From contig OY762721.1 of assembly GCA_963666345.1 (NCBI GenBank), forward strand, positions 1,312,001 through 1,376,000: a stretch of DNA of 64,000 nt, given 5' to 3'. The stretch is from Desulfatiglandales bacterium. Its GTDB lineage: Bacteria; Desulfobacterota; DSM-4660; Desulfatiglandales; Desulfatiglandaceae. Shown here piece after piece: positions 31,715 to 48,205 of the stretch. Under the pieces are notes generated by a model. The model had not been told where the DNA came from. It made no database searches and was given only the letters and a program-made list of their open reading frames with translations. Position numbers and translations under genes: made by a program. How positions within the stretch are numbered: the stretch's first letter is position 1; each line of letters opens with the position of its first letter.

Positions 31715-32082
31715 CAACATAGACCAGACACCTTAAAAGATGCTCTCCTTCCTCAATGGCAGTAGCATGATAGCGGTCTTCCCAGAAGGCACCCTTTCTA
31801 TTTTTCCTTTGATTGTATTCCTGTCCTGTTCTGCCGGCTATCAATTTGATGGATTTCGGGATAACATCCCTTTCTCCATCATCTGATGCTATCAGGTGTA
31901 TATGGTTTGATGTTACAGCGTAATTAAGGATAGTTAACCCGTAACGTTTTCTTGCCTGGTATAGCCAGTAAAGCCAGCGACGTCGGTCTCTGGCAAACTT
32001 AAGCAGAAATTCCCTTTTATGGCATCGGTGTGTTATATGCCATGTATAACCAGGGATAAAATGCCTTTTTGCTCTTGCCATC

Positions 32083-32321
32083 ACCACAAACCTATAATGC
32101 CCTTTTCGGTATCAAAAATCGCAATATAGGCCTTATTTCAGGCCCTTTTCAGACTTGTTTCTAAGTTATTTCAGAATGTTATCGTGGCCCGACCCCCAAT
32201 CAACCACAAACCTATAATGCCCTTTTTGGTATCAAAAATCGCAATATAGACCCGATTTCAGACCCTTTTCAGACTTCTTTCTAAGTTATTTCAGAATGTT
32301 ATCGTGGCCCGACCCCCAATC
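32083..32321. repeat. Tandem duplication, 120-bp period
   Basis: 32083-32201 and 32203-32321 are near-identical. Confidence 0.9.
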
Positions 32322-32344
32322 CTACAGGATGTTGGGCAGATCTG

Positions 32345-33291: not shown

Positions 33292-36200
33292 TCAATCTTT
33301 TTTGTGTAACTTATTTATGAAATCTGACAAGAGGTCTGCTCTCAGGAACTCTGCATTAATTCCTTCGGACGGGAAGCTGGTCCACCAATGACTGTTCCTG
33401 CTCAGGTATATTGTTATTATTTTGGGCGGGTTCTTTTCGTCTATAGGCCATCTTAGGGCTCGGGCGATTTCAGCCAGATGTTTCTTTAGGTAATCTTCCC
33501 GTCTGTTGATTTGCTCGAAATATCCTTGTGACTTGCCTGGTATGCCGAAAATTTTCTCTCTCAGCCTTCTTGCGTCTTTGAGAGAGTGCGCTTGGAGCAG
33601 GTCTTTGCATTCGATATTCAGGATGATGTTTTTATCTTGATGAAATGACAAAACGTCGTAATCGCCCAGCTCTTGAGGATGATGCCCTTTGGGTTCAAGC
33701 TTATCCAGCTTTAGGTTTTTTTGCGCAAGTGGCGTATGCCTTTTGACTATTTCAAACGTCTTGTCCGCTAAGGCATCCTCGATAAGCTTTTTTTCCGAGG
33801 CTATTACCTGTTCTATATTTGGTGACTGTAAATCTGTTGGCAACCTACCCTCCGGGATAGTTGCTGACCATAGGAGTGCTGTCCTTCTTGCGGAATATGC
33901 TCCCCAATGGAACTGATTTCCCACTTTGATTATCGGCCGCAGATTGTATCTTGCATACCTCTTCCTGTATTCCCATACCGGCAAGTCTGAACAGGGCTCT
34001 TCTTGTCCTAATACTCGGATAACATCTTCCTTCTTTAGCGTCAGGAAATCGATTATCCGGCCGGCCTCTTCTAAGCTACAATCTGGAATGTTTTTGCTAA
34101 ATATTTCGATTGTTTCCTCAGAAGCGGCTTTGTAGCTCGTGCTTTCTTCAACATCCTTGGCAAATGTTGGCCAGAAAGACAGAATTTGTAAGGCATTTAC
34201 CATATTCTTCAGACTAAATCCTAAGTCTGCGATGCTTGCCTTATCGATTTCGTTTAATAGTTCCTCAACAGGTCTTGGTGATTCCACCCGGTCCTCCGAT
34301 TTTCCGATAAGGCCTAATTCGAGTTGTGCCATCATTTCAGAATATTGTTTCTCCTTGGTTTCCATTTCGGGCTCGTACATTACCTCTAAAAGAAAGTCTC
34401 TGTCGAGCTTCATCCCAACCGGCAGGATTCCATAATGGAGGTTATCGCTTGCGCTGTACAACACATGAAGCCAGTCTATCAGCGCGATAAAATACTGGAA
34501 TTGGGTCCTGGTTATTTTTTCTTTTCCTTTCGGCTCTATCTGCACTAATTTTTCTATAATGTACCTATAGTTTTTGTGGGTCTTTATGAATTCCGTGTGC
34601 TTCTCCGCGTGTCTTACTTCCGGCTGGTAGTCTGTTTCGTGTTGTAACGAATGTTTGATTCTGTGTCGGTGGCGCTCGTTTTCCGCATTAAGAGCATCAA
34701 TTCTTGTGAGCAGAAATGGGATGGCGGTTGTAAAGTCATATTTTGACACCTCGGAGTTTATTTCGGCCACTATTGCATCTCTTAGCCTGTTAATGATTGT
34801 TTTGGCTTCCTCAAGATGGTATTCGCCTTCCTGGACGTCTAGCTGGCTTGCAATTTCCGCTATCCTTTTCTTGGCCCTTTTGAAATGCGCTTTTTCCGGC
34901 TCTAAGGGGCTTATGAATTCAGGAAAACTTGCCGGTTTATCTACGGCAAACATCTTGAAACGTGGCTTTCCCGGTTTGGTTTTTTCAAGCTTTTCTATTA
35001 TGCTTCCAATTTCTTTGTCTGGAACCAGTTCGTCTAATCGGGCTAAAACTTCCAGCAGGATATCGACTTCAAGAGAGCAATCCGTGGCGTCGTTAAAGGT
35101 CTTTCGTATTTCTTCGTCATTAAAAACGACTCTTACACCTATAGTGCCTTTTCTAATCCTGGATAGGTCAGAACACCAATATTTTTCGATTCCACAAAGA
35201 TGCCGTACATGTTTGAATTTTTCGTCCTTAACCACCATTGATAATGGGAAAAATATTATATGCAGTTTTTCTGGTCTCTTAAAAAACGCATGTTCAGTAA
35301 AGATTGACTCTCTTCTTGACATGGAATCTTCGAGGCATTCCATCAATAAATTAGACAAGCTACCTTGAGGGTAATCCATAGCATCGAATGGCGCAGTCAT
35401 AGAAACTTCAGTTGGACCGATTCTTGAATATAACGCCGAGCCGAAATATCCTCTTGCCACCAGTCTAATTCTTGTATCAGTCTCCTTTTTGACCTTCCAG
35501 CTTTGTGGATGTCCGAAAAATCCATGCTCCGGAAATTCTTCCCAAAATGAGGATAGGGTCTTGTAGCGAAGGCTCGTACCCCAATGAGGGTCAATACTTA
35601 TAAAGTCTGGCTCAAGGGCTCCTCCTATTAGTATTCCCTGAGAGTCCTTGTAGGAGGCGAACTTATCGAGCATAGTGAATCCGGTCTGTAGCTTAGGTTC
35701 TATTTCGTCCAAATATTCGAAAAAGTCAGCGAGAGTTTCTGGGTTTTCAAGCTCATCTATCATCCCGAGAAATGAATCGAGGAACATTACCCTGCCAGGC
35801 AAATCCACAGGTATTCCAAAAGATCGTATTTGGGTAGATACTTGTGGAATAATTATTAAGATTTCAGGTTGTAGAGTTCTCTTTTCGTCTTCTGAACGAA
35901 ATTGCACATTTTGCCTGTCTAAGTGGAGAGCCAGTGTTGCCGGTTGTTGGCTGGCTAGTTCTATAGCCTTGTTGAGTTCCGGCGCTATTTTTCTGAATTT
36001 TTTTTCCAGTGAATTTGAAGACACTTTCGGGGTTAAAAGGTAGATGAGTATGAGCTTGTTTCCAGCGATGAAGGCTGTAGTGAAAATTATATTATGCGGC
36101 TTTCCATCTTTTTCTACGGCGCTTGCCACGTAGAATATATTGTCTTTTGGGATACGGTATTTAACGTATTGATGCAATCTTGCGCCAATTTTAAAAAGAA

Positions 36201-37104
36201 GCCGTCGCTTGTCAGGTTCGATTTTATCGATATGATTTCTATATGTTTCTGACCATGAATCGAACAGTATCGCGGAGTACCGCCTTGGAAGTATAGGATA
36301 ATATCTTGCTTTGTTTTTGATAAAGAATGCGGGAATTAGAGTCCCATCGAATATGCTATTGCCAAAAGTTTCGTATTCCAGTGAATCTCGGGGGTATTCA
36401 CCGAGGTTTAGAGTATAAAGATTTTTGAACTGAGCAGGCTCCAACTCATCTGGTACGAATGCTGTATAAAATGTTTTAGCGTTTTCCCAGAATTCTTTCG
36501 GCGGTATCTCTATATGACCTGGTTCGATGTCTAAAGTCTTACTGTCCGGCTGTGCTGTTATCCCCTCAATTATGGTTTCTTGAAGGGTTAAGCAATATCT
36601 GAGCTCCAGGGCCGGGTCTCTATGGCAATGCCTATAATATTCTTCCTTGTATGGTCCGTAAACCATCTGGAATATTTCCAGGTATTCGTTCACGTTCGAC
36701 AACTCATTCCCGTAGAACATCTTATAATTTTTTTCATCATGATGGAATTTTATCTCTCCCCAGTCAGGTTCAGGGATGTAGTCCTCCAATGATGGGAATG
36801 CTGGAAGGAGATTATATATCTTTTCGAGGAAGGCTGAGAAGCCTTCATAAGTATTTATGATGTCTTCCGTGGAAAACTCTTCTGGCATAACAGTCGCGAA
36901 TATAGCAATAAGGAGCTGATGCTTTACTTGACTTGCGATATTCGGGAGCCACATATTTGAAACAAATAAGGATATGGCGACATCCTCAACGCTGTATTTG
37001 CGAAACTCGCTTCTGATACTCTCGACGCAATCACTGAAGGCCGCTTTTTCCTTTTCAGGATCTATGTCAAACATTCTTCTTATCGCTTCAATTCCATTTT
37101 CCAT
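33292..37104 (-). CDS. 1270-aa cassette protein with C-terminal PD-(D/E)XK-like nuclease motif
   Basis: Long ORF ending just before an attC; GDYDVL...NIECK. Confidence 0.75.
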   Translation of the reverse strand: MENGIEAIRRMFDIDPEKEKAAFSDCVESIRSEFRKYSVEDVAISLFVSNMWLPNIASQVKHQLLIAIFATVMPEEFSTEDIINTYEGFSAFLEKIYNLLPAFPSLEDYIPEPDWGEIKFHHDEKNYKMFYGNELSNVNEYLEIFQMVYGPYKEEYYRHCHRDPALELRYCLTLQETIIEGITAQPDSKTLDIEPGHIEIPPKEFWENAKTFYTAFVPDELEPAQFKNLYTLNLGEYPRDSLEYETFGNSIFDGTLIPAFFIKNKARYYPILPRRYSAILFDSWSETYRNHIDKIEPDKRRLLFKIGARLHQYVKYRIPKDNIFYVASAVEKDGKPHNIIFTTAFIAGNKLILIYLLTPKVSSNSLEKKFRKIAPELNKAIELASQQPATLALHLDRQNVQFRSEDEKRTLQPEILIIIPQVSTQIRSFGIPVDLPGRVMFLDSFLGMIDELENPETLADFFEYLDEIEPKLQTGFTMLDKFASYKDSQGILIGGALEPDFISIDPHWGTSLRYKTLSSFWEEFPEHGFFGHPQSWKVKKETDTRIRLVARGYFGSALYSRIGPTEVSMTAPFDAMDYPQGSLSNLLMECLEDSMSRRESIFTEHAFFKRPEKLHIIFFPLSMVVKDEKFKHVRHLCGIEKYWCSDLSRIRKGTIGVRVVFNDEEIRKTFNDATDCSLEVDILLEVLARLDELVPDKEIGSIIEKLEKTKPGKPRFKMFAVDKPASFPEFISPLEPEKAHFKRAKKRIAEIASQLDVQEGEYHLEEAKTIINRLRDAIVAEINSEVSKYDFTTAIPFLLTRIDALNAENERHRHRIKHSLQHETDYQPEVRHAEKHTEFIKTHKNYRYIIEKLVQIEPKGKEKITRTQFQYFIALIDWLHVLYSASDNLHYGILPVGMKLDRDFLLEVMYEPEMETKEKQYSEMMAQLELGLIGKSEDRVESPRPVEELLNEIDKASIADLGFSLKNMVNALQILSFWPTFAKDVEESTSYKAASEETIEIFSKNIPDCSLEEAGRIIDFLTLKKEDVIRVLGQEEPCSDLPVWEYRKRYARYNLRPIIKVGNQFHWGAYSARRTALLWSATIPEGRLPTDLQSPNIEQVIASEKKLIEDALADKTFEIVKRHTPLAQKNLKLDKLEPKGHHPQELGDYDVLSFHQDKNIILNIECKDLLQAHSLKDARRLREKIFGIPGKSQGYFEQINRREDYLKKHLAEIARALRWPIDEKNPPKIITIYLSRNSHWWTSFPSEGINAEFLRADLLSDFINKLHKKD

Positions 37105-38588: not shown

Positions 38589-38645
38589 CCCTAACGAATT
38601 AATCAGCGGCCCGCTTTTTGGGTCCGCTGAATTTTCATGTTAAAT
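38589..38645 (-). other. attC site
   Basis: CCCTAAC..ATCAGCGGCCC..GGG[T]CCGCTGA..GTTAAAT. Confidence 0.85.
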
Positions 38646-38647
38646 TC

Positions 38648-39346
38648 TTACTTTAATGACGGCATAGGCTTATGTTTAATCACTAAATATAGAACATCAG
38701 ATTGGAACCATGGAGACGTTGTTTTTTGATCTTTAGCGTCAAATGTTTCTTCCACGTGTGAGATTCCAATTAAAGATAAGGCGTCACTTAACCTTTTTGC
38801 ATCACCTAACCGTGTTCCTTCAAATATTCCAATTGAAACGCCATATTCGTTCTGCGTGTAATTCTTTATCCGCATCGTTTGCCAATGTGCCTCACGCAAA
38901 GCCACATCAAAATCATTCGCGAAATCTGAACTCTCCGCATCCATCAATGTTGAGACGATTGCGACAGTTCCCGGATCATCAGTGAGAAGCTTAATCAACT
39001 TCTCACTTTGAGCATTTGTCAAACGACGTGGCTTGACTTCGCTTTCAAGTTTATTTGCTTTAGCCTCCGTCCGTGCTAACTGATCTGATTGTGTCACAAT
39101 AAAATTTTGAAGCTCATCGACTTTCTTGTTGGAATTGTAGGTTTCCATCGAATTTATAACCATAAGCATCAATGCAAATACCGGGAGTCCCCAATTTACT
39201 AAAAGAAATTCCAAACCAGTGCGCCATTTTTCTTTTCCAATTTTAGCAGATTTGAATGCAACCCATCTCTTCCCATGATCGAAATATGCGGGAAGAAAAG
39301 AAATAAAGCAAAGAGCTATGTTTAAAAATAATGATAATTTCCACAT
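38648..39346 (-). CDS. Cassette hypothetical protein (two N-terminal hydrophobic helices, coiled coil)
   Basis: ORF bounded by GTTAAAT / ATTTAAC cores. Confidence 0.75.
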   Translation of the reverse strand: MWKLSLFLNIALCFISFLPAYFDHGKRWVAFKSAKIGKEKWRTGLEFLLVNWGLPVFALMLMVINSMETYNSNKKVDELQNFIVTQSDQLARTEAKANKLESEVKPRRLTNAQSEKLIKLLTDDPGTVAIVSTLMDAESSDFANDFDVALREAHWQTMRIKNYTQNEYGVSIGIFEGTRLGDAKRLSDALSLIGISHVEETFDAKDQKTTSPWFQSDVLYLVIKHKPMPSLK

Positions 39347-39364
39347 TTTTAATTTCTAATTTAA

Positions 39365-39515
39365 CGGCCCCGCGGATCAGCGGCGGGCGAACGCGCGAGC
39401 TTGCTCGCGTGGATGACCGACCGCTGCATCCGCTTGATGGCCGGCGCGCAGCGCCGGACAGCATGCGGATGATAATACGCGGGGCCGATGGCACGGCGCG
39501 TAGCGTCCGTGCCAT
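39365..39515 (-). repeat. 151-bp gene-less cassette, copy 4 from attI
   Basis: Near-identical to the three other copies; G|ATGGCAC...GGGGCCG|TT junctions. Confidence 0.95.
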
Positions 39516-39580
39516 CATCGAGATCACCTGCCGCTATGTAGCGCAGCGGAGTAGCGGTCAGGTGGAGCGCCTTGTTAGCC
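39516..39580 (-). other. attC site (R' converted to GATGGCA by the 151-bp unit)
   Basis: TCACCTG CCGCTA...TAGCGG[T]CAGGTG..GTTAGCC. Confidence 0.85.
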
Positions 39581-40211
39581 CAGTGACGGTTCTATAAAGA
39601 CTTGCTATTACTGGAATAAATATCGGCGGTGTCAGCTTTAGAACTATTTGTCTAATCGATTTTTTATCGGCTTTCTGCCATTTTGCGTACTTTTCTGTAA
39701 ACTCTGTTAAAGAAGGCTTATCATTTTTAAAGCCAATTCCTACTATTGTATGAGGAAAACTCTCATTACCTTGAAATCCCACGAAAGACTTATCGAAGGG
39801 CTTCAAAATTGATTTGAATGCTTCAGGTGTGAATCGCCAATAATCATAGGGATGATCGTGAATAGGAAAATCCATAACAGAACTAATTACTGCAATTCCA
39901 TTAGGTTTAAGTATTCGATGTATCTCTTCTAATGCCTTACGGGGATATTCAACATGTTCCAGTGTATCAAAACACAAAACTGTTCCAACGGATTCAGAAG
40001 GGATGTCAATCGCATGTAAATCCAATATCTTATCAACGCCTAGGCCTTCTCGCATGTCACAACCAATATATTCTTTATTGCGGAATAACGGACGCAAATC
40101 CGCAAACCCTATCTGCTCAGGTACTTGAAATGAACCAAATTCATATATAGGTTCAAGGGTTGGTAACGTTATGCTTACTATGCTTGCAAAGTCTTTAACG
40201 TTCTGTCTCAT
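39558..40211 (-). CDS. Cassette SAM methyltransferase (type 11-like)
   Basis: EFGS, YIGCD..G.GVD, TLEHV..P, RILKP.G, H..P.DYWRFT; stop lies inside attC. Confidence 0.85.
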   Translation of the reverse strand: MRQNVKDFASIVSITLPTLEPIYEFGSFQVPEQIGFADLRPLFRNKEYIGCDMREGLGVDKILDLHAIDIPSESVGTVLCFDTLEHVEYPRKALEEIHRILKPNGIAVISSVMDFPIHDHPYDYWRFTPEAFKSILKPFDKSFVGFQGNESFPHTIVGIGFKNDKPSLTEFTEKYAKWQKADKKSIRQIVLKLTPPIFIPVIASLYRTVTGLTRRST

Positions 40212-40235
40212 ACTAATTCCTCTTTTTCGGGCTAA

Positions 40236-40386
40236 CGGCCCCGCGGATCAGCGGCGGGCGAACGCGCGAGCTTGCTCGCGTGGATGACCGACCGCTGCAT
40301 CCGCTTGATGGCCGGCGCGCAGCGCCGGACAGCATGCGGATGATAATACGCGGGGCCGATGGCACGGCGCATAGCGTCCGTGCCAT
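40236..40386 (-). repeat. 151-bp gene-less cassette, copy 3
   Basis: As the other copies; hairpin-loop variant A. Confidence 0.95.
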
Positions 40387-40442
40387 CGCCGATCTTCAGC
40401 GGGCGCGGCTTTTTGCGATCCGCTGCAAGAGCATGGTTATGA
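40387..40442 (-). other. attC site
   Basis: CTTCAGCGG...CCGCTG[C]AAG..GTTATGA; matches the cassette start GTTATGA. Confidence 0.85.
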
Positions 40443-40482
40443 AATAATCAGTGTTACTTGCTCAAAACGCTCTTTCCCATTC

Positions 40483-41400
40483 TTATTCACTTTGAAGGTC
40501 GATACCCCAATCCGGTAACCGTGACTCCACGTAGTTTCGAAGAAGAGTGTATCGAAATCCCAGCTTAGAGTTCCGAGCTTCTTTATGTTTAATAGATTCA
40601 TGAATGATAAAGTTGTAAGCAATGCGAACATGTTCGACGTGCTTCTGGAACGTGGATCTGATATCAGACCCCAGCCAATCAAGAAACGTGCACCCGTCAT
40701 CATCTACCGCAAGAAGTCCCAGTGCTCTCGTAGCGAGGTCAGCGTGTGCCTGCTCCTCTGCTGCGGTTATCCCTTCCAGGCCCGAGATGGACTGAAGATA
40801 GCGCACAAGCTCCTCACCGACAACTACTCTAGGGTACTGAGCCACCTTGCTTTCCAGCCTGTAAGCTCTAGCGAGGGCTGGACCATACACTTCGCCCTCT
40901 TCGATGTCCATTGCTAGACCGAGTTCGATTCCGCCCCGAATTGTCCAAGAATGCACCAGGCATGAGAGAAACGTCATGGCTGTTGCAGCCAAAACCCCAT
41001 AAATAGCGTGACATTGGAATTTACCTACGTCGTTACGCAGCGGAATATGGACTATCAGTGAATCAGAAAAATGCCGATAGAAGACGGGGGTACTCCTAAA
41101 CTGTTTCAGAAGTTCCTTTTCCAAAGGCGAAAACGCGCTCTCGTCTGAACCCCCTTCAAGGAATGGCTTGATACTGGCACTAAAGAAGCTTTGCAGGCCA
41201 TAAAGTGGTCTGTAAAGTTCGGCCACTTTCTGCTTAAAGGCGGCCACCTCTTCTTGGTTCTCGACATTAGGCAATACCGTCATTTTGCTGAGCACATCCT
41301 GCTGTCCAAGTAGGTCCAGAAATGCCACTACATACCATGCCATATGTTTCGGTTTCTGGTTCTTCGGGTCTTCTGTTCTATTCGCATCCTGATTCATCAT
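40483..41400 (-). CDS. Cassette class III nucleotidyl-cyclase-like protein
   Basis: VAFLDLLG, FSDS, IRGG, YGPALARAY.LES..A.YPRV. Confidence 0.7.
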   Translation of the reverse strand: MMNQDANRTEDPKNQKPKHMAWYVVAFLDLLGQQDVLSKMTVLPNVENQEEVAAFKQKVAELYRPLYGLQSFFSASIKPFLEGGSDESAFSPLEKELLKQFRSTPVFYRHFSDSLIVHIPLRNDVGKFQCHAIYGVLAATAMTFLSCLVHSWTIRGGIELGLAMDIEEGEVYGPALARAYRLESKVAQYPRVVVGEELVRYLQSISGLEGITAAEEQAHADLATRALGLLAVDDDGCTFLDWLGSDIRSTFQKHVEHVRIAYNFIIHESIKHKEARNSKLGFRYTLLRNYVESRLPDWGIDLQSE

Positions 41401-41436
41401 ACATTCCTGACTTCTGGCCTACTTTCTATTTCATAA

Positions 41437-41587
41437 CGGCCCCGCGGATCAGCGGCGGGCGAACGCGCGAGCTTGCTCGCGTGGATGACCGACCGCTGCA
41501 TCCGCTTGATGGCCGGCGCGCAGCGCCGGACAGCATGCGGATGATAATACGCGGGGCCGATGGCACGGCGCGTAGCGTCCGTGCCAT
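41437..41587 (-). repeat. 151-bp gene-less cassette, copy 2
   Basis: As the other copies; loop variant G. Confidence 0.95.
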
Positions 41588-41668
41588 CGTTAAAATAACT
41601 GGCAAATTAAAGCGGTGCGGCGATAGGAGCGCCGCTTTAATTTGTCCAAGTTGATTTTCTTGTTATGT
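41588..41668 (-). other. attC site
   Basis: AACTGGCAAATTAAAGCGG...CCGCTTTAATTTG[T]CCAAGTT..GTTATGT; matches the cassette start GTTATGT. Confidence 0.85.
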
Positions 41669-41740
41669 GTTGATTGCATCATCCCTGCCAGACTTTATCA
41701 TCAAAAAGCACAATAGCTGCTTACGGCCAAAATCGGACAT

Positions 41741-44700
41741 TCAGAATCTATCCTCCATAAAATCGGATTTTTTCTCAGCTTCCATCATTTTCCGATTACC
41801 TTGCACATGCCTTTCAATATAAAGCTTATGTTGAAGAAGGTCTGCGGTGTTGCACAAGGGCAAAAGCGATTCCCAATATTCAACCCGCGCTTGATACATT
41901 GGCACCGCACTTCCTGAGCCACCCCAAGTATCAGGCTCCAATGCCAACCTCTCAAAATCTTCATAACTTTTATTGTTTTCAAGAAACAACTCTATGAAGC
42001 GCTTCCGCCTTTCCGGAGCAAAATGCGATATTGGCTTAAATATTAAAGCCATTAAGTAGGAGTCTTGTGCTTGCTCCTGAATTATTGCCACCAGAAATTC
42101 ATCCTGCTTTGCTACAGCTTCCGGCGGGCATTTTTTGTTGCCATGAACACAGAAGAGCCGTTCCATATAGCTTCCTAATATATATCCCCGCCCTTTTTCA
42201 TGTTGCAGTAAGCGCTCTATTGCACGCGACATAATGGTATCACAGTCATTGTGATGCCACAGAAACGCATAATCACGTGTGTCTGCATAACTGCGCGCCC
42301 ATTCATCACCATCATATACCCGATCTGTATACTCCAGTATAAAATCAGGATTTACGGACAGTATGCGGCCAAGCGTCGCGCCGTTATAATCAGCATTTCT
42401 ATCCACCTTTATGTGAACCATGTATGCTCTTTCCAAAGAGTCTTGATGACCGTCGAAAAGATCAAAAATTTGTTTATTAGCCTCCGAAAGCGGATTGAAG
42501 AGAGAGTCCAATCCGTGGCCAAAAAAATCATCTGTCTCTGCTTTTTCTACAATTATGTTTGTAACATTCACGACAACACCACTGTCTTGCGCTGTATAAT
42601 TTAGCAGATAATCGTAATCGTATGGCAGTTCGCTGCGTTCAGCATTCCGGTAGAGTTCATACAAATTTTCTATGGTTTCAGAGTTAATATCCTCGGGTGA
42701 TAGGCATAGATAGTAACCAAAAAGCCATTGCCGTTTGGCCGGATATTCAGGCTCTTCAACAATCTTAAGCGTTTGTTTAGCGCCGCACGTTTTCAGCAAC
42801 TTATCGACGATTATAGCAGGTTGCTGTATTGCCAGAGGGTTTCCCAATTTCAAATATTCCTGGATTACCTGTACATAAAGAGGGCCGTCTCTTTCTGCAA
42901 GAGCCAGTAGGGCCTGCAGGATTCCTGTCTTAACTTCGTGCGTTTCGTGACTGCCGCTTATATAGGACATTATTTCTATAAACTGCTGAATAAGCCGTAG
43001 ATAGTCATCAAGACCAAATTTGCTTGTATAGTCCTTTATTTTTTGTTTTTTGAATTTTTCAAATTCACGAAAGCCCATATCTCCTGCATCGGAGTAATCA
43101 AAAGACAGCAATTTGTATATTTCATAAATTCCATTACGGAAGTTTTCGGAAAGCTTGTCCATATCAGGAATATCGCGGAGGTCGAGCATGGCAAGATAAT
43201 CCTGTACAATAAGGCAATGTGAAAAATTATCCGGGTCGAGCGTGTCTCTAATAAACGGAATTACAACCTCTGCATCTTTGACTGCGATCTCTTTTTGTGA
43301 CAGGTAATAGCCCGAATTGCTGTAGCTTTTCAAAACGCCCAAAGCTTCTTTTTGAAAAGAGAAGTTTTGATACAGATGAAAAATACCGTTCCAAATAGCC
43401 CTCCGTAGCTCGAAAATCGGTTCAATTGCTATGAGGTTAAACTGATGTATGGTTATAGAGTTTTTTGACGCCTCGTGGCTTTCAAACCGTGTGGGCATAT
43501 ATTTTTTTGCAACAGCAAGAAACAGCTTCGAAAACAATTCATTCCTGCCCTGATCAGCTTTTTGCCAGAGAGTTTCAATCACAATCCTTTGAATGATATA
43601 TTCCCGAAGATGAGAATGGTGCGTAAATCCAAATCTTTTTGTTAGGAGATTAAGAAATTGGGGAACAGCTTGCGGTATTTTCTCCACATAATTAAAGGCC
43701 AATTCAAGCGCAGAACGGAAAGTGCCCTTTTCATCTGCCTGTTTAAAGAGACCCAAAAGGTCTAGAAGAGGGTGCAAATCTGTATCAGGGTTTTCCGCCG
43801 CCCAGTCTATGGAAGCGAGTTCAACTGGTTTTGCCTCTACTGCTTCAATGCAGTCACGGATATAAACAAGAGCATCCGATTGAAGCAAAAACCAGAATAG
43901 CCGGATGAGCGAATGCAGATTGTTTGTATCCCCGCTATTCATTAAATCGCGCCTTTTCTTTTGTATATGAGGACGCATCTGCGCTGTGAGCCTTGCGAAG
44001 TCAAACGCGTTCAAACAGGGATAAATGGCATCTCTAAAACGGTTAGTTTGCCCAGGAAAGAAATTGTCTATGAGGGTAGTAAAGTCGAGAATCTCATCTT
44101 TGAAAAAGCAAAGATAAAATAAATAAGTGACAAAAACTTGATCACTGATTTTTACAACTTCACGTTCATAAATATTAACAACCTCACAGTCGTGAAGATG
44201 TTGGACCGCTTTCCAGAAATCTTCAGGAGCAATTCCAAAAATATTTTGTATGAGTTGCATCAATTCTGTGTTGGAGCGATCTATAGTCCTGAAAAAAGAA
44301 ATGATTCCTGCAACCTTCAAAACATTCTCATCCTGCAGGTTTCTAAGGTCATTAGATATGGAGGCAAAATATTCATCATATAGGACAGAGACATCCCTGA
44401 TGCTGTCAAAACTACCGTGTTTGACCGCTACTTTTGCTGCCATGATTGCAAGCCGTGGGTTGCCCCCGGAAATCTCAGCAATTCTGTCCAGAAATAATGG
44501 GTTTGTTATGTTGTATTGCTCCTTAACCAAATCCTTTATTTCTTGCGCCTGCATCGGTTTCAACTCTATTTCAGGGGTTGCTCCCAAGGGTTTTGCGGCC
44601 TGGTTTATTTTGTCACGTGCGTAATCGCGCACGGTTGCGATCACTTTTATCTGCTGATCTTGTCTTTGGTTTTGGATAAGATCGACAACATAATCAAACC

Positions 44701-45511
44701 GTGTGATACGGTTTGCATCATCCACTAAAATCAGAAATTGGCCGGGCTGTGAAAAATGAGTGCGTATATCTTCGAACAGGTCGGGTCCCCTGTTATATAT
44801 GCACCGCGTTTCAAAATCCGGATGTGCTTCCTCAAAATCTTGAAGAGCCTGCAGGCCAAGGCGGGATTTACCAACACCAGCTTGGCCTGATAAAACCACA
44901 AGGTTATTGTTTACCAGTCCTTCCAAAACTTGTTGTATTTCCTGCTCCCGGAAATGAAAATCTGTATCCAATGGTGTGGTAAGCTGATTTCTTCCTACAT
45001 TCGCTACAAAATCGCCCGGCTCCAAAATTTGCCCTGTATCAATGCTAATGCCCAGAAAAGCCTGCGCTAGGCCCGGATACTTTTGATAGAGGTCAAAGGA
45101 GATACTGCCTATTCCAAAAACCTGAATATTTACCCCTTTTTGCTTGCCTTCATCGTAAAGCTCTTTCTCTTCTTCAGGTGAAAGAAGAGATGTATGGCAG
45201 AAAACAATTTCCTCAATCTCAGTTAATAGAATGCCAGTTTTAGTCTCATCAAGGCATTTACTCAGATCGCCTTTTAATTTAGACGCAATATTCGTTTGGT
45301 CTGTGGTAAATTCTGCAAAAATAAGTTTGCCATTTTTCTGTCGTATATAAGTATCTGGTGTCCCTTTTCGTACTTTATTTGCACCGATCACAGAACCGAT
45401 AGGGTTGATATTGTTATAGCCTTTTTTGTGTATATAACTGTCTGCCAGTTTTTGGAACTCTCCGCATCCAATTTCTTTTAGGGCCTTTTCTATCTGGTTA
45501 ATCTTAGACAT
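41741..45511 (-). CDS. Cassette REase-like + STAND-type P-loop NTPase with long helical C-terminus
   Basis: EFQ..A, GTPD..AEFT N-terminus; GQAGVGKSR Walker A; LILVDD Walker B; TVR; GGNPRLA. Confidence 0.8.
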   Translation of the reverse strand: MSKINQIEKALKEIGCGEFQKLADSYIHKKGYNNINPIGSVIGANKVRKGTPDTYIRQKNGKLIFAEFTTDQTNIASKLKGDLSKCLDETKTGILLTEIEEIVFCHTSLLSPEEEKELYDEGKQKGVNIQVFGIGSISFDLYQKYPGLAQAFLGISIDTGQILEPGDFVANVGRNQLTTPLDTDFHFREQEIQQVLEGLVNNNLVVLSGQAGVGKSRLGLQALQDFEEAHPDFETRCIYNRGPDLFEDIRTHFSQPGQFLILVDDANRITRFDYVVDLIQNQRQDQQIKVIATVRDYARDKINQAAKPLGATPEIELKPMQAQEIKDLVKEQYNITNPLFLDRIAEISGGNPRLAIMAAKVAVKHGSFDSIRDVSVLYDEYFASISNDLRNLQDENVLKVAGIISFFRTIDRSNTELMQLIQNIFGIAPEDFWKAVQHLHDCEVVNIYEREVVKISDQVFVTYLFYLCFFKDEILDFTTLIDNFFPGQTNRFRDAIYPCLNAFDFARLTAQMRPHIQKKRRDLMNSGDTNNLHSLIRLFWFLLQSDALVYIRDCIEAVEAKPVELASIDWAAENPDTDLHPLLDLLGLFKQADEKGTFRSALELAFNYVEKIPQAVPQFLNLLTKRFGFTHHSHLREYIIQRIVIETLWQKADQGRNELFSKLFLAVAKKYMPTRFESHEASKNSITIHQFNLIAIEPIFELRRAIWNGIFHLYQNFSFQKEALGVLKSYSNSGYYLSQKEIAVKDAEVVIPFIRDTLDPDNFSHCLIVQDYLAMLDLRDIPDMDKLSENFRNGIYEIYKLLSFDYSDAGDMGFREFEKFKKQKIKDYTSKFGLDDYLRLIQQFIEIMSYISGSHETHEVKTGILQALLALAERDGPLYVQVIQEYLKLGNPLAIQQPAIIVDKLLKTCGAKQTLKIVEEPEYPAKRQWLFGYYLCLSPEDINSETIENLYELYRNAERSELPYDYDYLLNYTAQDSGVVVNVTNIIVEKAETDDFFGHGLDSLFNPLSEANKQIFDLFDGHQDSLERAYMVHIKVDRNADYNGATLGRILSVNPDFILEYTDRVYDGDEWARSYADTRDYAFLWHHNDCDTIMSRAIERLLQHEKGRGYILGSYMERLFCVHGNKKCPPEAVAKQDEFLVAIIQEQAQDSYLMALIFKPISHFAPERRKRFIELFLENNKSYEDFERLALEPDTWGGSGSAVPMYQARVEYWESLLPLCNTADLLQHKLYIERHVQGNRKMMEAEKKSDFMEDRF

Positions 45512-45567
45512 CAGAAGTTTATCCTTTCAAACGTCCGCTATGGGTCGAAAAAGGACATTCCCAAGAC

Positions 45568-45625
45568 ACATAACGATTGAACTGTGCGGCGCGTTTTTTG
45601 CGTCCGCACCAGTGACAGGTTAGCC
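45568..45625 (-). other. attC site
   Basis: ACATAAC..ACTGTGCGGCGC..GCG[T]CCGCAC[C]AGT..GTTAGCC. Confidence 0.85.
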
Positions 45626-45631
45626 AAATTT

Positions 45632-46522
45632 TTAATCAACTCCCCATATTCTTTTACGTGAGTTGATATAATTTAATAACCGGAAATATCTTGAGGATAG
45701 TTTATCATTTTCAGCCTTTACGTATTTTTGATGCTGAGAGACCACAAAATCATATGCAAGATTTACTACTTCTGTATCAATGGAATTATCTGCCGTTTCC
45801 TTGGATTTTTCCCCCATAAAATCGAGCATGAAACGTCCATCTGTGTCTCTAATAATCATTTCTCTACAAAATTTGGCCATATCTTTTGCCACCAAACCAA
45901 GTCGAGTTTTACACTGTTGATTTTCAACCCATAACAAATAATTTATGAGTTCTTTTCCGACAACAAAACGAGGATACTCAGCTAAATTGCTTTCGATAAA
46001 ATATGCACGTTCAAGCGCTGGCCCATATATTTCCTGTCCTTCGATTTTTGTTCCAATCCCTACATCTAATCCAGCCCGCAAAGCAATAGTGGCAGCTAGG
46101 CTGATAAAACCAATACCACAAGTTGCTACAAGTGCAGAATAAACGCCATTAATGGCAGTACAATTCTCATCGTCACTCATTAGTGGTACAGCGACTATTA
46201 TTGAGTCAGAAAAACTATAAAAATAAACCTCAGATTTTTGTGAAGCTATAAACTCTTCACGATGTTCAGGTGGCACAAGATCGGTATTTGGAATATGCGA
46301 ACTGGAGGCTTTAAAGAAATCACTAAAAGCATTTCTAAGTCTATCAACTTTACCTACTGTTTGGCGTATTTTATCTAAAAAGACCTCTTTTTCCTCCTCA
46401 TTTGTAGGCAAATCTCTAATCTCACGCAATATGCTTCTTTGCCCAAGAATATCGAGAAAAACAATAAGATAGTGTTGAAATACCAAGTCACTTTTATTTT
46501 TTTGATTAATTTTAATATTCAT
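45632..46522 (-). CDS. Cassette nucleotidyl-cyclase-like protein (homologue of 40483-41400)
   Basis: VFLDILG, FSDS, LRAG, YGPALERAY.IES..A.YPRF. Confidence 0.7.
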   Translation of the reverse strand: MNIKINQKNKSDLVFQHYLIVFLDILGQRSILREIRDLPTNEEEKEVFLDKIRQTVGKVDRLRNAFSDFFKASSSHIPNTDLVPPEHREEFIASQKSEVYFYSFSDSIIVAVPLMSDDENCTAINGVYSALVATCGIGFISLAATIALRAGLDVGIGTKIEGQEIYGPALERAYFIESNLAEYPRFVVGKELINYLLWVENQQCKTRLGLVAKDMAKFCREMIIRDTDGRFMLDFMGEKSKETADNSIDTEVVNLAYDFVVSQHQKYVKAENDKLSSRYFRLLNYINSRKRIWGVD

Positions 46523-46537
46523 ATTTTTATTTGCTAA

Positions 46538-46688
46538 CGGCCCCGCGGATCAGCGGCGGGCGAACGCGCGAGCTTGCTCGCGTGGATGACCGACCGCTGC
46601 ATCCGCTTGATGGCCGGCGCGCAGCGCCGGACAGCATGCGGATGATAATACGCGGGGCCGATGGCACGGCGCATAGCGTCCGTGCCAT
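46538..46688 (-). repeat. 151-bp gene-less cassette, copy 1 (first position, at attI)
   Basis: As the other copies; loop variant A; no attC upstream. Confidence 0.95.
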
Positions 46689-46778
46689 CTAGTGAGTAGT
46701 GAGAATTATTTCCCGTTTAACAGTAAACGCGACTTTTTTCTCGTTTATTCAATATCCCGGAAGTAATTCTCGTTTATT
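46689..46778 (-). other. Putative attI region
   Basis: Crossover G at 46689 between the first cassette and intI; direct repeats TTCTCGTTTATT x2 and IR GAGAATTATTTCCCG / CCGGAAGTAATTCTC. Confidence 0.6.
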
Positions 46779-46810: not shown

Positions 46811-46927
46811 TGCACAAAAACCTGTGCATGATTGCCCTAAAAATTGTGCAAATTCGCCGATCATATTTGCTGTCACCTTCTTAAAGTGCTGAATTTTATG
46901 GACATTCTTATCTGGCATGTTTCATGC
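46811..46927 (+). promoter_or_regulatory. Candidate sigma54 promoter plus enhancer sites upstream of intI
   Basis: TGGCAT-N5-ATGC 46913-46927; TGCACA-N6-TGTGCA 46811-46828 and TGCCCT-N6-TGTGCA 46833-46850. Confidence 0.5.
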
Positions 46928-47011: not shown

Positions 47012-47980
47012 ATGAATACCACCTCTAAACCCAAAAAGCTGCTCGACCAGGTCAGGGACGTGCTTCGAGTAAAGCACTACGCATACAGGACCGAGAAAAC
47101 CTACATATTCTGGATTCGCAGATTCATCCTTTTTCATGAAAAGAAACACCCTTCGGAAATGGGCTCAAAGCAAATCCAGGATTTTTTGACACACTTGGCA
47201 GTGGAACGTAACGTCTCCGCCTCCACCCAGAACCAAGCTTTGAACGCTTTAATTTTTCTGTATAAAAAGGTCCTCCGCATTGATTTAACGGATCCCATTG
47301 AAGCCGTCCGCGCCAGACGGCCGACCCGACTTCCGGTCGTGCTTTCCAAACCGGAGGCATTTAAGATCATCGACCTCATTTCCGGCGAGTCTCAACTCAT
47401 CGTCAAGCTCCTCTACGGAAGCGGGCTTCGCCTGATGGAATGCATGCGGCTCCGTGTAAAGGATATCGACTTTTCAATGAACCAGATCCTTGTTCGTCAC
47501 GGTAAGGGCGGAAAGGACCGTGTGACAGTGCTCCCGGCGAATGTCACAGACTCTCTTCAAATGCATTTGAAAAAGGTCAGGGCCATTCATGAAGATGATT
47601 GCAGACATGGATTTGGCCATGTCAATCTTCCCGGGGCTCTCGCCAGAAAATATCCCAATGCCTCTAGTCAATGGGCGTGGCAATTTGTTTTCCCGTCCAG
47701 ATCTCTTTGCAAAGATCCACGCTCCGGAGAAATCCGGCGGCATCACCTGCACGAAAGCTGTGTAAGAAAGGCCCTTAAAAAGGCTGTAACTCTTGCCGAC
47801 ATCCATAAGCAAGTCGGATGCCACTGCTTCCGGCACAGCTTTGCAACTCATCTCCTTGCAGACGGTTACGACATCCGCACTGTGCAGGAGCTGCTCGGGC
47901 ACAAAGACGTTTCCACAACAATGATTTACACGCACGTCCTGAACAAAGGCGGCCGTGCCGTTCGGAGCCCGATCGACTGA
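47012..47980 (+). CDS. intI: Integron integrase
   Basis: [30 protein letters not shown], integron-specific insertion (LP.ALARKYP.A...W.WQFVFP), [24 protein letters not shown]. Confidence 0.97.
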
Positions 47981-48205
47981 GCTATTTGCTGAAGGTCTCA
48001 AAGAGCTTTCTTATTTAAAATCCACGTCATAGACAACAAAAACCCCACCTCTCTATCTGAGAAACGGGGTCTGATTGCCTCATGGGTGCCTCCGGTTATG
48101 TTTATTTAATGCAGATAAGCAAAAATAATTTAACGCTTGCCATGTTGATATTTTTATCTGTTTTTGTCAAGTTTTACACTTACTTGATGGACCATTCGGA
48201 GATGG

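Follow-up and report, generated by a model that had tools for sequence, protein, structure and literature searches.

A self-folding, gene-less 151-nt unit repeated at integron cassette junctions of a Desulfatiglandales bacterium: probably a minimal integron cassette

Integron cassettes are usually viewed as genes carrying a recombination site. In a stretch of 64,000 nucleotides (nt) from a Desulfatiglandales bacterium (GenBank contig OY762721.1, here C1, the single 4.16 Mb contig of the genome; the stretch, C1:1312001-1376000, is referred to as the window), the cassette array of an integron is interrupted four times by an almost invariant unit of 151 nt without a gene. What is such a unit, and how did it come to stand at cassette junctions again and again? 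From its placement, its build and its relatives we propose that it is probably a minimal non-coding integron cassette, which the integrase IntI would excise and re-insert, mostly at attI, in a copy-and-paste manner.

The unit, its place in the array and its relatives

A repeat search recovered one direct-repeat family in the window, at 39351-39516, 40222-40387, 41423-41588 and 46524-46689, which contains the four near-identical, G+C-rich 151-bp units that an initial annotation, made from the letters alone, had placed there. Their sole difference is a C or T at unit position 16. The G+C content of the unit is 71.5%, against 41.1% in the surrounding array, and all copies are gene-free and lie downstream of attI on the cassette strand (minus). 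On this strand each of the four has a G directly before it and TT directly after it (G|ATGGCAC...GGGGCCG|TTA), and the exact crossover placement that had been claimed was thus found at every copy. Counted from attI, the order is unit, cassette 2, cassette 3, unit, cassette 5, unit, cassette 7, unit and cassette 9; the units therefore occupy array positions 1, 4, 6 and 8, as had also been read before. The flanking gene cassettes, again in agreement with the initial annotation, keep their own matching pairs of first bases and inverse core (TTAGCA/GGCTAAC, TTATGTG/CACATAAC, TTATGAA/TTCATAAC, TTAGCCC/GGGCTAAC and TTAAATT/AATTTAAC). The array is composed as follows:

47012-47980, plus strand: intI, integron integrase of 322 amino acids (aa), divergent from the array (TIGR02249, 471.6 bits, cut-off 265; Pfam PF00589 and PF13495)
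46689-46760, minus strand: attI region, ending ...CTCACTACTCACTAG, with the G at 46689 as crossover base (from the sequence and relatives L063 and L065)
46538-46688, minus strand: unit copy 1, array position 1, directly at attI; T at unit position 16
45574-46537, minus strand: gene cassette 2; open reading frame (ORF) 45632-46522, 296 aa, without family; attC 45625-45574
41588-45573, minus strand: gene cassette 3; ORF 41741-45511, 1256 aa; long attC with its last G at 41588
41437-41587, minus strand: unit copy 2, array position 4 (repeat search and folding)
40387-41436, minus strand: gene cassette 5; ORF 40483-41400, 305 aa; final G of the attC at 40387
40236-40386, minus strand: unit copy 3, array position 6; T at unit position 16
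39516-40235, minus strand: gene cassette 7; ORF 39558-40211, methyltransferase; attC 39580-39516
39365-39515, minus strand: unit copy 4, array position 8
38595-39364, minus strand: gene cassette 9; ORF 38648-39346; canonical attC 38645-38595, then G|TTAGGGT

The count of four was correct for the window. Two more copies in the genome had escaped notice, as had the family to which the unit belongs and the fact that its 5' half has a conserved fold. BLAST of the unit against the genome returned six full copies, the four in the window and two elsewhere, at C1:3098499-3098652 (identical) and C1:3278070-3278226 (86%). The initial annotation had named copies away from integron junctions as what would speak against a cassette; all six copies have the ends G|ATGG...CCG|TT, and all six lie at cassette junctions without a target duplication. 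Both outside copies are preceded by an attC-type hairpin and followed by GTT within clusters of small cassettes, one of which includes an intI fragment and toxin-antitoxin-like genes and the other a group II intron.

Relatives were searched for by BLAST and with a covariance model built from six copies. They were found in 21 of 105 genomes of the same family and in 23 of 151 genomes of the order (12/54 in f1, 4/34 in f3 and 6/53 in f6, leaving the present genome, G000, aside), often with several copies per genome. Copies within a genome are identical or 1 nt apart, also in G013 and G284, while copies of different genomes diverge and keep the fold. The closest relatives of the IntI itself, at 88-94% identity, belong to uncultured Desulfobacteraceae metagenome-assembled genomes (MAGs). 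A Sulfurimonas MAG gave a weak match with model R1 (31 bits); in the integron of this MAG the element stands directly at attI and again inside the array. Model R2 (26 members) found nothing in the same genome at E <= 0.001, and BLAST with the MAG's own copy revealed a divergent, multi-copy branch in 13 of 151 genomes of its family. The unit family thus occurs in about one in six to seven sampled genomes of this order of sulfate reducers, with a divergent form around the Sulfurimonas MAG. Several genomes contain short versions of about 60 nt that consist of P0 and P1 only, the two outermost helices described below; a deletion between two ATCCGC repeats of the full unit would explain them. At L051:1423-1659 a member breaks off right behind its internal CACAAC box, where the 3' end of another member (...CCCCG|TTG) follows in inverted orientation; it looks as though the internal box had served in recombination.

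Folds and core triplets

The 3' 78 nt of the unit read GGCCATC-AAGCG-GAT[G]CAG...CTGATC-CGCGGGGCC-G, with one extra-helical G and a spacer of 9 nt (CGCGGGGCC), so that the R'' box, the stem and the long spacer noted in the initial annotation are all present. Compared with the attCs of cassettes 5 and 9, this half agrees in box order, in its [G/T]CAG...CTGA stem and in where the extra-helical base lies; it differs from the neighbours' attCs in having ATC for AAC and in the 9-nt spacer. The conserved triplets AAC (R'') and GTT (R') are replaced in the window copies by ATC and G|AT, and the inverse core GCCATC is complementary to the unit's own start, GATGGC, which would give a paired R box in a circle. 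Textbook boxes occur in the relatives L033 and L034 (GGCTAAC-AATAC-GTTCGACC...GGTCAAC-GCGCC-A|TT). The 3' half of copy 2, folded as a single hairpin, has a free energy of -22.7 kcal/mol. In the hairpin test by which the neighbours' attCs had been picked out, and which accepts a triplet followed by a single hairpin with unpaired ends of at most 8 and at most 10 bases and at least 10 pairs, 19 of 25 representative members passed at the expected box, compared with 60 of 500 shuffled sequences. An attC finder that required five of seven complementary core bases in the array context had been dropped after it missed known attCs. Judged by its build, the 3' 78 nt is an attC homologue constructed like the attCs of its neighbours, and the window unit would be about half attC and almost nothing but a recombination site. 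The parts of copy 2 are:

41437-41514, minus strand: attC-like 3' half (R'' GGCCATC, spacer AAGCG, L''/L', 9-nt spacer, last G)
41587-41560, minus strand: helix P0
41558-41550 with 41446-41438, minus strand: helix P1
41543-41499, minus strand: helix P2
41498-41450, minus strand: helix P3

The 5' 73 nt contain, in inverted form, the start of the cassette and the attC 3' spacer (P0 and the 5' arm of P1), joined to a 5' arm of P2 that is a mismatched partner for the inverse core. In P0, ATGGCACGG is paired with CCGTGCCAT; the next stretch, C-GGCCCCGCG, pairs in P1 with the 3' spacer and the last base; and in P2 a further arm lies, with regular mismatches, opposite the inverse core and its spacer. 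Because the 5' half is an inverted copy of the 3' half-site of attC, the unit folds as a hairpin plus a three-way junction, and because it is complementary to the rest of the unit, each single strand has two possible folds, the stable hairpin with three-way junction or an attC-like hairpin. The most stable predicted fold is the former (-100.2 kcal/mol, z = -6.4, with none of 200 shuffles as stable) and differs from the attC fold; the opposite strand folds equally well. In a circular unit, P0 and P1 would be joined across the junction into one uninterrupted stem of 19 bp. An alignment of 26 members, fitted to the covariance model and hence favouring the hairpin-plus-junction fold, shows changes on both sides in 39 of the 52 pairs of this fold; 93.7% of its cells are paired, against 74.5% in shuffles and 30-45% with slid partners. 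For the attC-type pairing between the start and the internal box the corresponding values are 79.2%, 68.7% and 15-39%. The attC and the GAT/ATC core of the initial annotation are thus present, although it had overlooked that the best fold is a different one and that GAT/ATC is only one of the core states in the family.

No promoter- or terminator-like signal was found within the units by simple scans. A sigma-70 consensus scan placed no site inside any unit and 12 sites in the 7.9-kb region, where 17.3 were expected, and the promoter and terminator counts did not exceed those of shuffles. Rfam gave no family at its gathering score in the window and, with E up to 10, no intron or insertion sequence (IS) RNA in a single unit; together with the failure to find any longer element with the unit's ends, this bears on a known IS or intron match, another observation that had been named as contradicting a cassette.

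Across the relatives the core occurs in three states, GAT/ATC, GTT/AAC and ATT/AAT. Many relatives have G|TT...AAC, and others end in A, giving a junction A|TT of their own, with AAT in P0. The middle base of the start is matched to the 3' arm of P0 as AU in 13, UA in 11 and GC in 1 member, and to the internal box as AU in 12 and UA in 10, with 3 others. It co-varies at three sites in both branches, and start and internal box change together across the family. Close pairs differ in the core alone, for example G013 with ATGTTGCC/...CAACATC/CACATC and G178 with TTGTTGCC/...CAACAAC/CACAAC. A triple change of the same kind is seen in the Sulfurimonas branch, where G201 has ATG.../...CATC/CCATC against TTG.../...CAAC/CCAAC in the relatives compared. 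The base after P0 follows the last base of the element: T goes with an A end in 12 of 14 cases and C with a G end in 30 of 31. Nearly all elements have G in front of them. Such a pattern is expected if the crossover lies behind the triplet's first base, the element then taking its last base along and leaving the base in front of it in place. The exceptions are L006, which starts with AAT and has a compensating ATT, L058, with an A end that is not compensated, and one 5'-cut copy in L022, with T and a G end.

For IntI1, PMC2811028 reports that attC x attI1 recombination increased when a T2->A2 change was compensated, that a non-complementary GTT-ATC site recombined at 6e-6 compared with 2.2e-3, and that the first core base must match between both partners. 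The statement of the initial annotation that GNT secondary sites can be used is in line with this, in that IntI1 tolerates and even favours the compensated change, which makes use of a GAT/ATC core feasible. In two relatives with GAT-type units we observed sequence other than the unit at G|AT junctions, namely attI|ATTTAAC... at L041:256-300 and unit|ATGCTC... at L017 (reverse complement) 1641-1660, which hints that gene cassettes with AT starts may exist; inverse cores matching AT starts were looked for at these two junctions and not found.

Movement of the unit and alternative explanations

Two Desulfobacteraceae MAGs (L063 and L065), with IntI 93-94% identical, share this attI, which in them runs straight into a gene cassette (G|TTAT). 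They represent the empty site for copy 1 and fix the ends of the unit at the IntI crossover. In contigs of runs X1, possibly the source sample, and X4, a marine-sediment metagenome, the attI G (46689) is joined straight to the first T of cassette 7 (40235); the X4 joint lies on an 845-nt contig in which cassette 7 has one differing letter and the attI flank a 57-nt deletion. Sequencing depth in X1 was 24.8 for cassette 7, 10.1-12.7 for cassettes 2-3 and 5, and 85.3 for a contig with 137 nt of the unit. Taken together, the empty sites, the X1 and X4 joints and the depths indicate that the unit is no obligatory part of attI, that cassettes are reshuffled exactly there, and that the unit is truly present in several copies. 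Contigs of X1 and X4 also contain a second variant of the attI flank, with the 57-nt deletion (46714-46770) and three adjacent substitutions (46829-46831); in X1 each of two alternative readings occurs at these three positions, so that several array variants seem to coexist in the source sample. In one X1 contig the attI flank continues at unit position 24 (46691 to 39492, side 29), without the P0 5' arm and loop, which could be either a real deletion or a hairpin artefact.

These depths also bear on whether the four copies could be a single unit misplaced several times during assembly of a repeat-rich region. Short-read contigs do break at the ends of the unit, so the cassette order cannot be confirmed from them, but the genome is a single contig in which every copy has individual flanks left and right, the unit contig of X1 is far deeper than the cassettes (85.3 vs 10.1-24.8), and the multi-copy pattern with different flanks recurs in unrelated assemblies. 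We regard an assembly artefact as hardly credible.

Counted strictly, on the evidence of an attI-like motif or of a complete intI gene no more than 700 nt away on the opposite strand, 11 of the 46 copies found in the order and 8 of 14 in the Sulfurimonas branch lie directly at attI. A further 17 of the 46 are preceded by an attC hairpin accepted by the script. The 18 order copies and 6 Sulfurimonas-branch copies that the script left unassigned include many that are visibly attC ends or near-variants of attI.

All sequence-level predictions of a separate gene-less cassette with its own attC and a GAT/ATC core, multiplied by IntI, as the initial annotation had it, hold: at the six junctions, at the empty attI sites, in the 19 hairpins and in the co-variation of start and internal box. 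On this basis IntI would excise the unit as a circle, in which the junction G|ATGGCAC restores a perfectly paired core, and would re-insert it mostly at attI. Exchange of one strand followed by replicative resolution would amount to copy-and-paste, which would in turn explain why one genome has five almost identical copies and why the first position is so often occupied by the unit. That replicative resolution can duplicate a cassette at attI is described in PMC3458562, and 'copy and paste' into the first position has been observed (PMC8024014). Once integrated, a unit of the GAT type would have a mismatched middle base at both of its junctions (AAC/GAT upstream and ATC/GTT downstream). As a mismatch of this type cuts recombination by IntI1 several hundred-fold, insertion may, by analogy, be easier than loss. 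Since neither a product nor a promoter is evident, we take the unit to be primarily a selfish, IntI-dependent element, with possible side effects on the stability and expression of neighbouring cassettes.

Several observations weigh against such a cassette. The lowest-energy fold hides the inverse core, both spacers and the start, and as the attC parts are masked in it, the attC fold has to compete. The spacer between L' and R' is 9 nt in the unit and 5-8 nt in the neighbours. In relatives of the ATT/AAT type the internal box stays AAC, which gives an A.C clash at the first base of the attC fold, and the IntI1 rule would predict that A|TT junctions recombine poorly with G|TT sites. Mini versions that lack the whole attC part are still found at junctions. 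The share of copies at attI could reflect a platform function rather than recent insertion. Thirteen neighbouring attCs, aligned by MAFFT and analysed with RNAalifold, yielded no consensus pairs, so that no covariance model could be made of them. Among the five contig joints listed, none skips one unit and none is a circle junction, and contigs drop rare variants; nor was a unit-less allele of a unit-bearing cassette-to-cassette junction seen in the contigs.

Some of these points would fit a unit that is a cassette by origin but has been kept for a role, as a structured single-stranded DNA (ssDNA) or RNA module at attI and between cassettes. Such a role might be a switch between the masked and the attC-like fold that tunes IntI, a lock made of mismatched cores, or an influence on the stability or translation of cassette transcripts. 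The two folds are mutually exclusive and both conserved, the partners of the 5' half are precisely the attC segments which, for IntI, have to be free or bound to R', and the first position at attI recurs in two phyla (in the strict counts given above). There are three compensated core types (GTT, GAT and ATT), and in the window each attC of cassettes 3 to 7 precedes a unit, so that all those junctions have a mismatched middle base. Extended to the whole family, this would make it a control module of sedentary integrons, an ssDNA switch in which a 5' 'anti-attC' masks and releases the unit's own attC and the cores re-programme junction specificity. GAT units would then insert readily and leave a mismatched middle base at both flanking sites, ATT units would give rise to A|TT junctions able to pair with their own kind alone, and the units would be locks or private landing pads deciding cassette mobility. 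Near-identical copies within a genome and patchy presence (21/105 and 23/151 genomes) are, however, the pattern of a mobile parasite; the unit is absent from the closest relatives with the same attI, the X1/X4 variant has a gene cassette directly at attI, and simple scans of the unit show neither a promoter-like nor a terminator-like site. We regard retention for a role as the main alternative, though clearly less likely than a selfish cassette, and the family-wide control module is, in our estimation, an equally doubtful proposal.

More improbable still is a non-autonomous element, such as a miniature inverted-repeat transposable element (MITE) or an IS200/IS605-type palindrome-associated element, that targets the GTT of attC and attI and is moved not by IntI but by another enzyme, for instance a transposase of the Y1 or the IS1111-type DEDD kind or the protein of a group II intron. 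The genome does hold 17 matches to the Y1 transposase family PF01797, one of them at window 31746-32045, as well as one DEDD transposase; hairpins stand close to either end of the unit, which has no target duplication; and the divergent L006 copy, starting with AAT and carrying a compensating ATT, would suit an element to which the first base belongs. It is also known that some elements home to attC (PMC3001079 and PMC11187229). Against this, the genome contains no longer element with the unit's ends (the six full copies being all that BLAST found), Rfam detects no intron or IS RNA in the unit, and the unit sits at the 3' crossover in sense orientation, and also at attI, whereas IS1111-attC elements and group IIC-attC introns are reported to sit near the attC 5' end in antisense (PMC3001079). 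Moreover, the 3' half is built as a homologue of the host's attCs, and the co-variation of the last base matches a crossover located behind the first triplet base.

If the unit is indeed a minimal cassette moved by IntI, a recombination site, doubled back on itself, would have become the passenger and a minimal replicator living on IntI. Its natural sequences make it possible to test how much of attC IntI requires and how a competing structure controls it, and the natural GTT, GAT and ATT versions, each with two compensating partner sites, do the same for the effect of a core change on arrays. In practice, the units break short-read assemblies at attI, may be miscounted as attC sites or as intergenic RNA motifs, and may affect which cassettes of chromosomal integrons stay mobile.

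Neighbouring loci and comparison with known systems

The proteins of cassettes 2 and 5 (45632-46522 and 40483-41400, both minus) are paralogues with 34% identity over 299 aa (E 1e-49), and each lies directly downstream of a unit; neither was assigned to a Pfam or PADLOC family. The array also contains two very large ORFs on the minus strand, 41741-45511 (1256 aa), with weak STAND-NTPase matches under the Pfam cut-offs, and 33292-37104 (1270 aa), with a weak PADLOC match to 'Upx' (E 4.9e-6), the only match that PADLOC returned for six cassette proteins. These two may be defence-type genes. Beyond the units, the window contains the Y1 transposase match mentioned above (31746-32045, minus) and two direct repeats of about 120 nt at 32088-32344. 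In the cluster of the 86% copy, a group II intron (RF02005, 105.2 bits) follows right after an attC at L006:2536-2800 (C1 about 3279105-3279369). At L004:1-260 (C1:3096999-3097258), a third cassette cluster starts with a copy of the terminator-like sequence found beyond the intI 3' end (window 48040-48100), followed by a C-terminal intI fragment (residues 292-322), which suggests a rearranged or duplicated integron end. In three relatives (L039:979-1377, L042:887-1189 and L017:884-1180, minus) a short ORF precedes an attI-like AGAAACTATATA..ACTTG|. These ORFs comprise only the integrase N-terminal SAM-like domain (PF13495 in L039) and are 43% identical between genera; no full intI was found within 1.5 kb, and they could be remnants or a stand-alone small protein.

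In the literature searched, which left most subscription journals outside, we found no multi-copy self-folding mini-cassette and no natural lineages with GAT or ATT cores. The search yielded gene-less promoter cassettes, cassette duplication, and IS elements and introns that target attC. Gene-less cassettes are thus already known, and it is the architecture of the unit that is apparently undescribed.

Among RNA families, the one notable match of a single unit at E up to 10 was to Clostridiales-1 RNA (RF01699), which shows a weak full-length similarity on the plus strand (window 41443-41583; 23.9 bits, E 0.0019, gathering score 48) and shares a GCUUGC-tipped hairpin; it was rejected, and its helix layout differs. 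We know of no link between Clostridiales-1 RNA and integrons, and the papers listed under that name proved unrelated. With MITEs, repetitive extragenic palindromes (REPs) and palindrome-associated elements the unit shares its small size, the absence of coding sequence, its wealth of hairpins and the occurrence of many copies, near-identical within and divergent between genomes. It differs from MITEs and REPs in having no terminal inverted repeats and no target duplication, in that no autonomous parent was found, and in its restriction to integron junctions. Palindrome-associated elements of the IS200/IS605 type have their end hairpins in common with a parent bearing a Y1 transposase and insert 3' of a fixed tetra- or pentanucleotide at any place in a genome. 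Such an identity was dismissed, as BLAST gave no partial matches to the ends and all copies lie at integron junctions.

IS1111-attC elements and group IIC-attC introns are mobile elements specialised on integron recombination sites, as the unit would be. They use enzymes of their own and are reported to be located near the attC 5' end in antisense (PMC3001079 and PMC11187229). The former encode a DEDD transposase together with a seeker/bridge RNA region; the latter have group II ribozyme domains and a reverse transcriptase and are inserted in the bottom strand of attC. The unit encodes nothing, occupies the 3' crossover and attI in sense orientation, and carries a host-type attC. With 151 nt it is too small for the gene of an IS1111-attC element, and the only PF01548 match of the genome (C1:2029062-2029496) is far from the copies. 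The Rfam searches given above, which found no intron in the window or the unit, led to the rejection of a group IIC-attC intron; the RF02005 match in L006 served as a positive case for intron detection.

Cassettes without an ORF but with promoter activity are known from Vibrionaceae superintegrons and from Treponema and oral integrons (PMC11014356 and PMC6557892). They resemble the unit in lacking an ORF and in lying between gene cassettes, on which they have been proposed to act. As described there, they were selected for the absence of ORFs of at least 70 aa, and most of them drive transcription. The unit, in contrast, is G+C-rich and almost wholly paired, occurs in many copies, has a structure conserved across genomes, and contains no sigma-70-like site in a simple scan.

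The closest likeness in build is to gene cassettes and their attCs (59-base elements). Like these, the unit is bounded by crossovers between the first and second core bases, is found at attI or after an attC, follows the orientation of the array and has an inverse core complementary to its own first bases; its 3' half has the order R''-spacer-L''...L'-spacer-R' with an extra-helical base, and replicative copy-and-paste, as for cassettes, would explain its multiplication. It differs in that it has no gene and is half attC and half an inverted copy of attC parts, in its ATC/GAT core (ATT/AAT in some relatives), its 9-nt 3' spacer and its five near-identical copies, and in a strand whose most stable fold is not that of attC.

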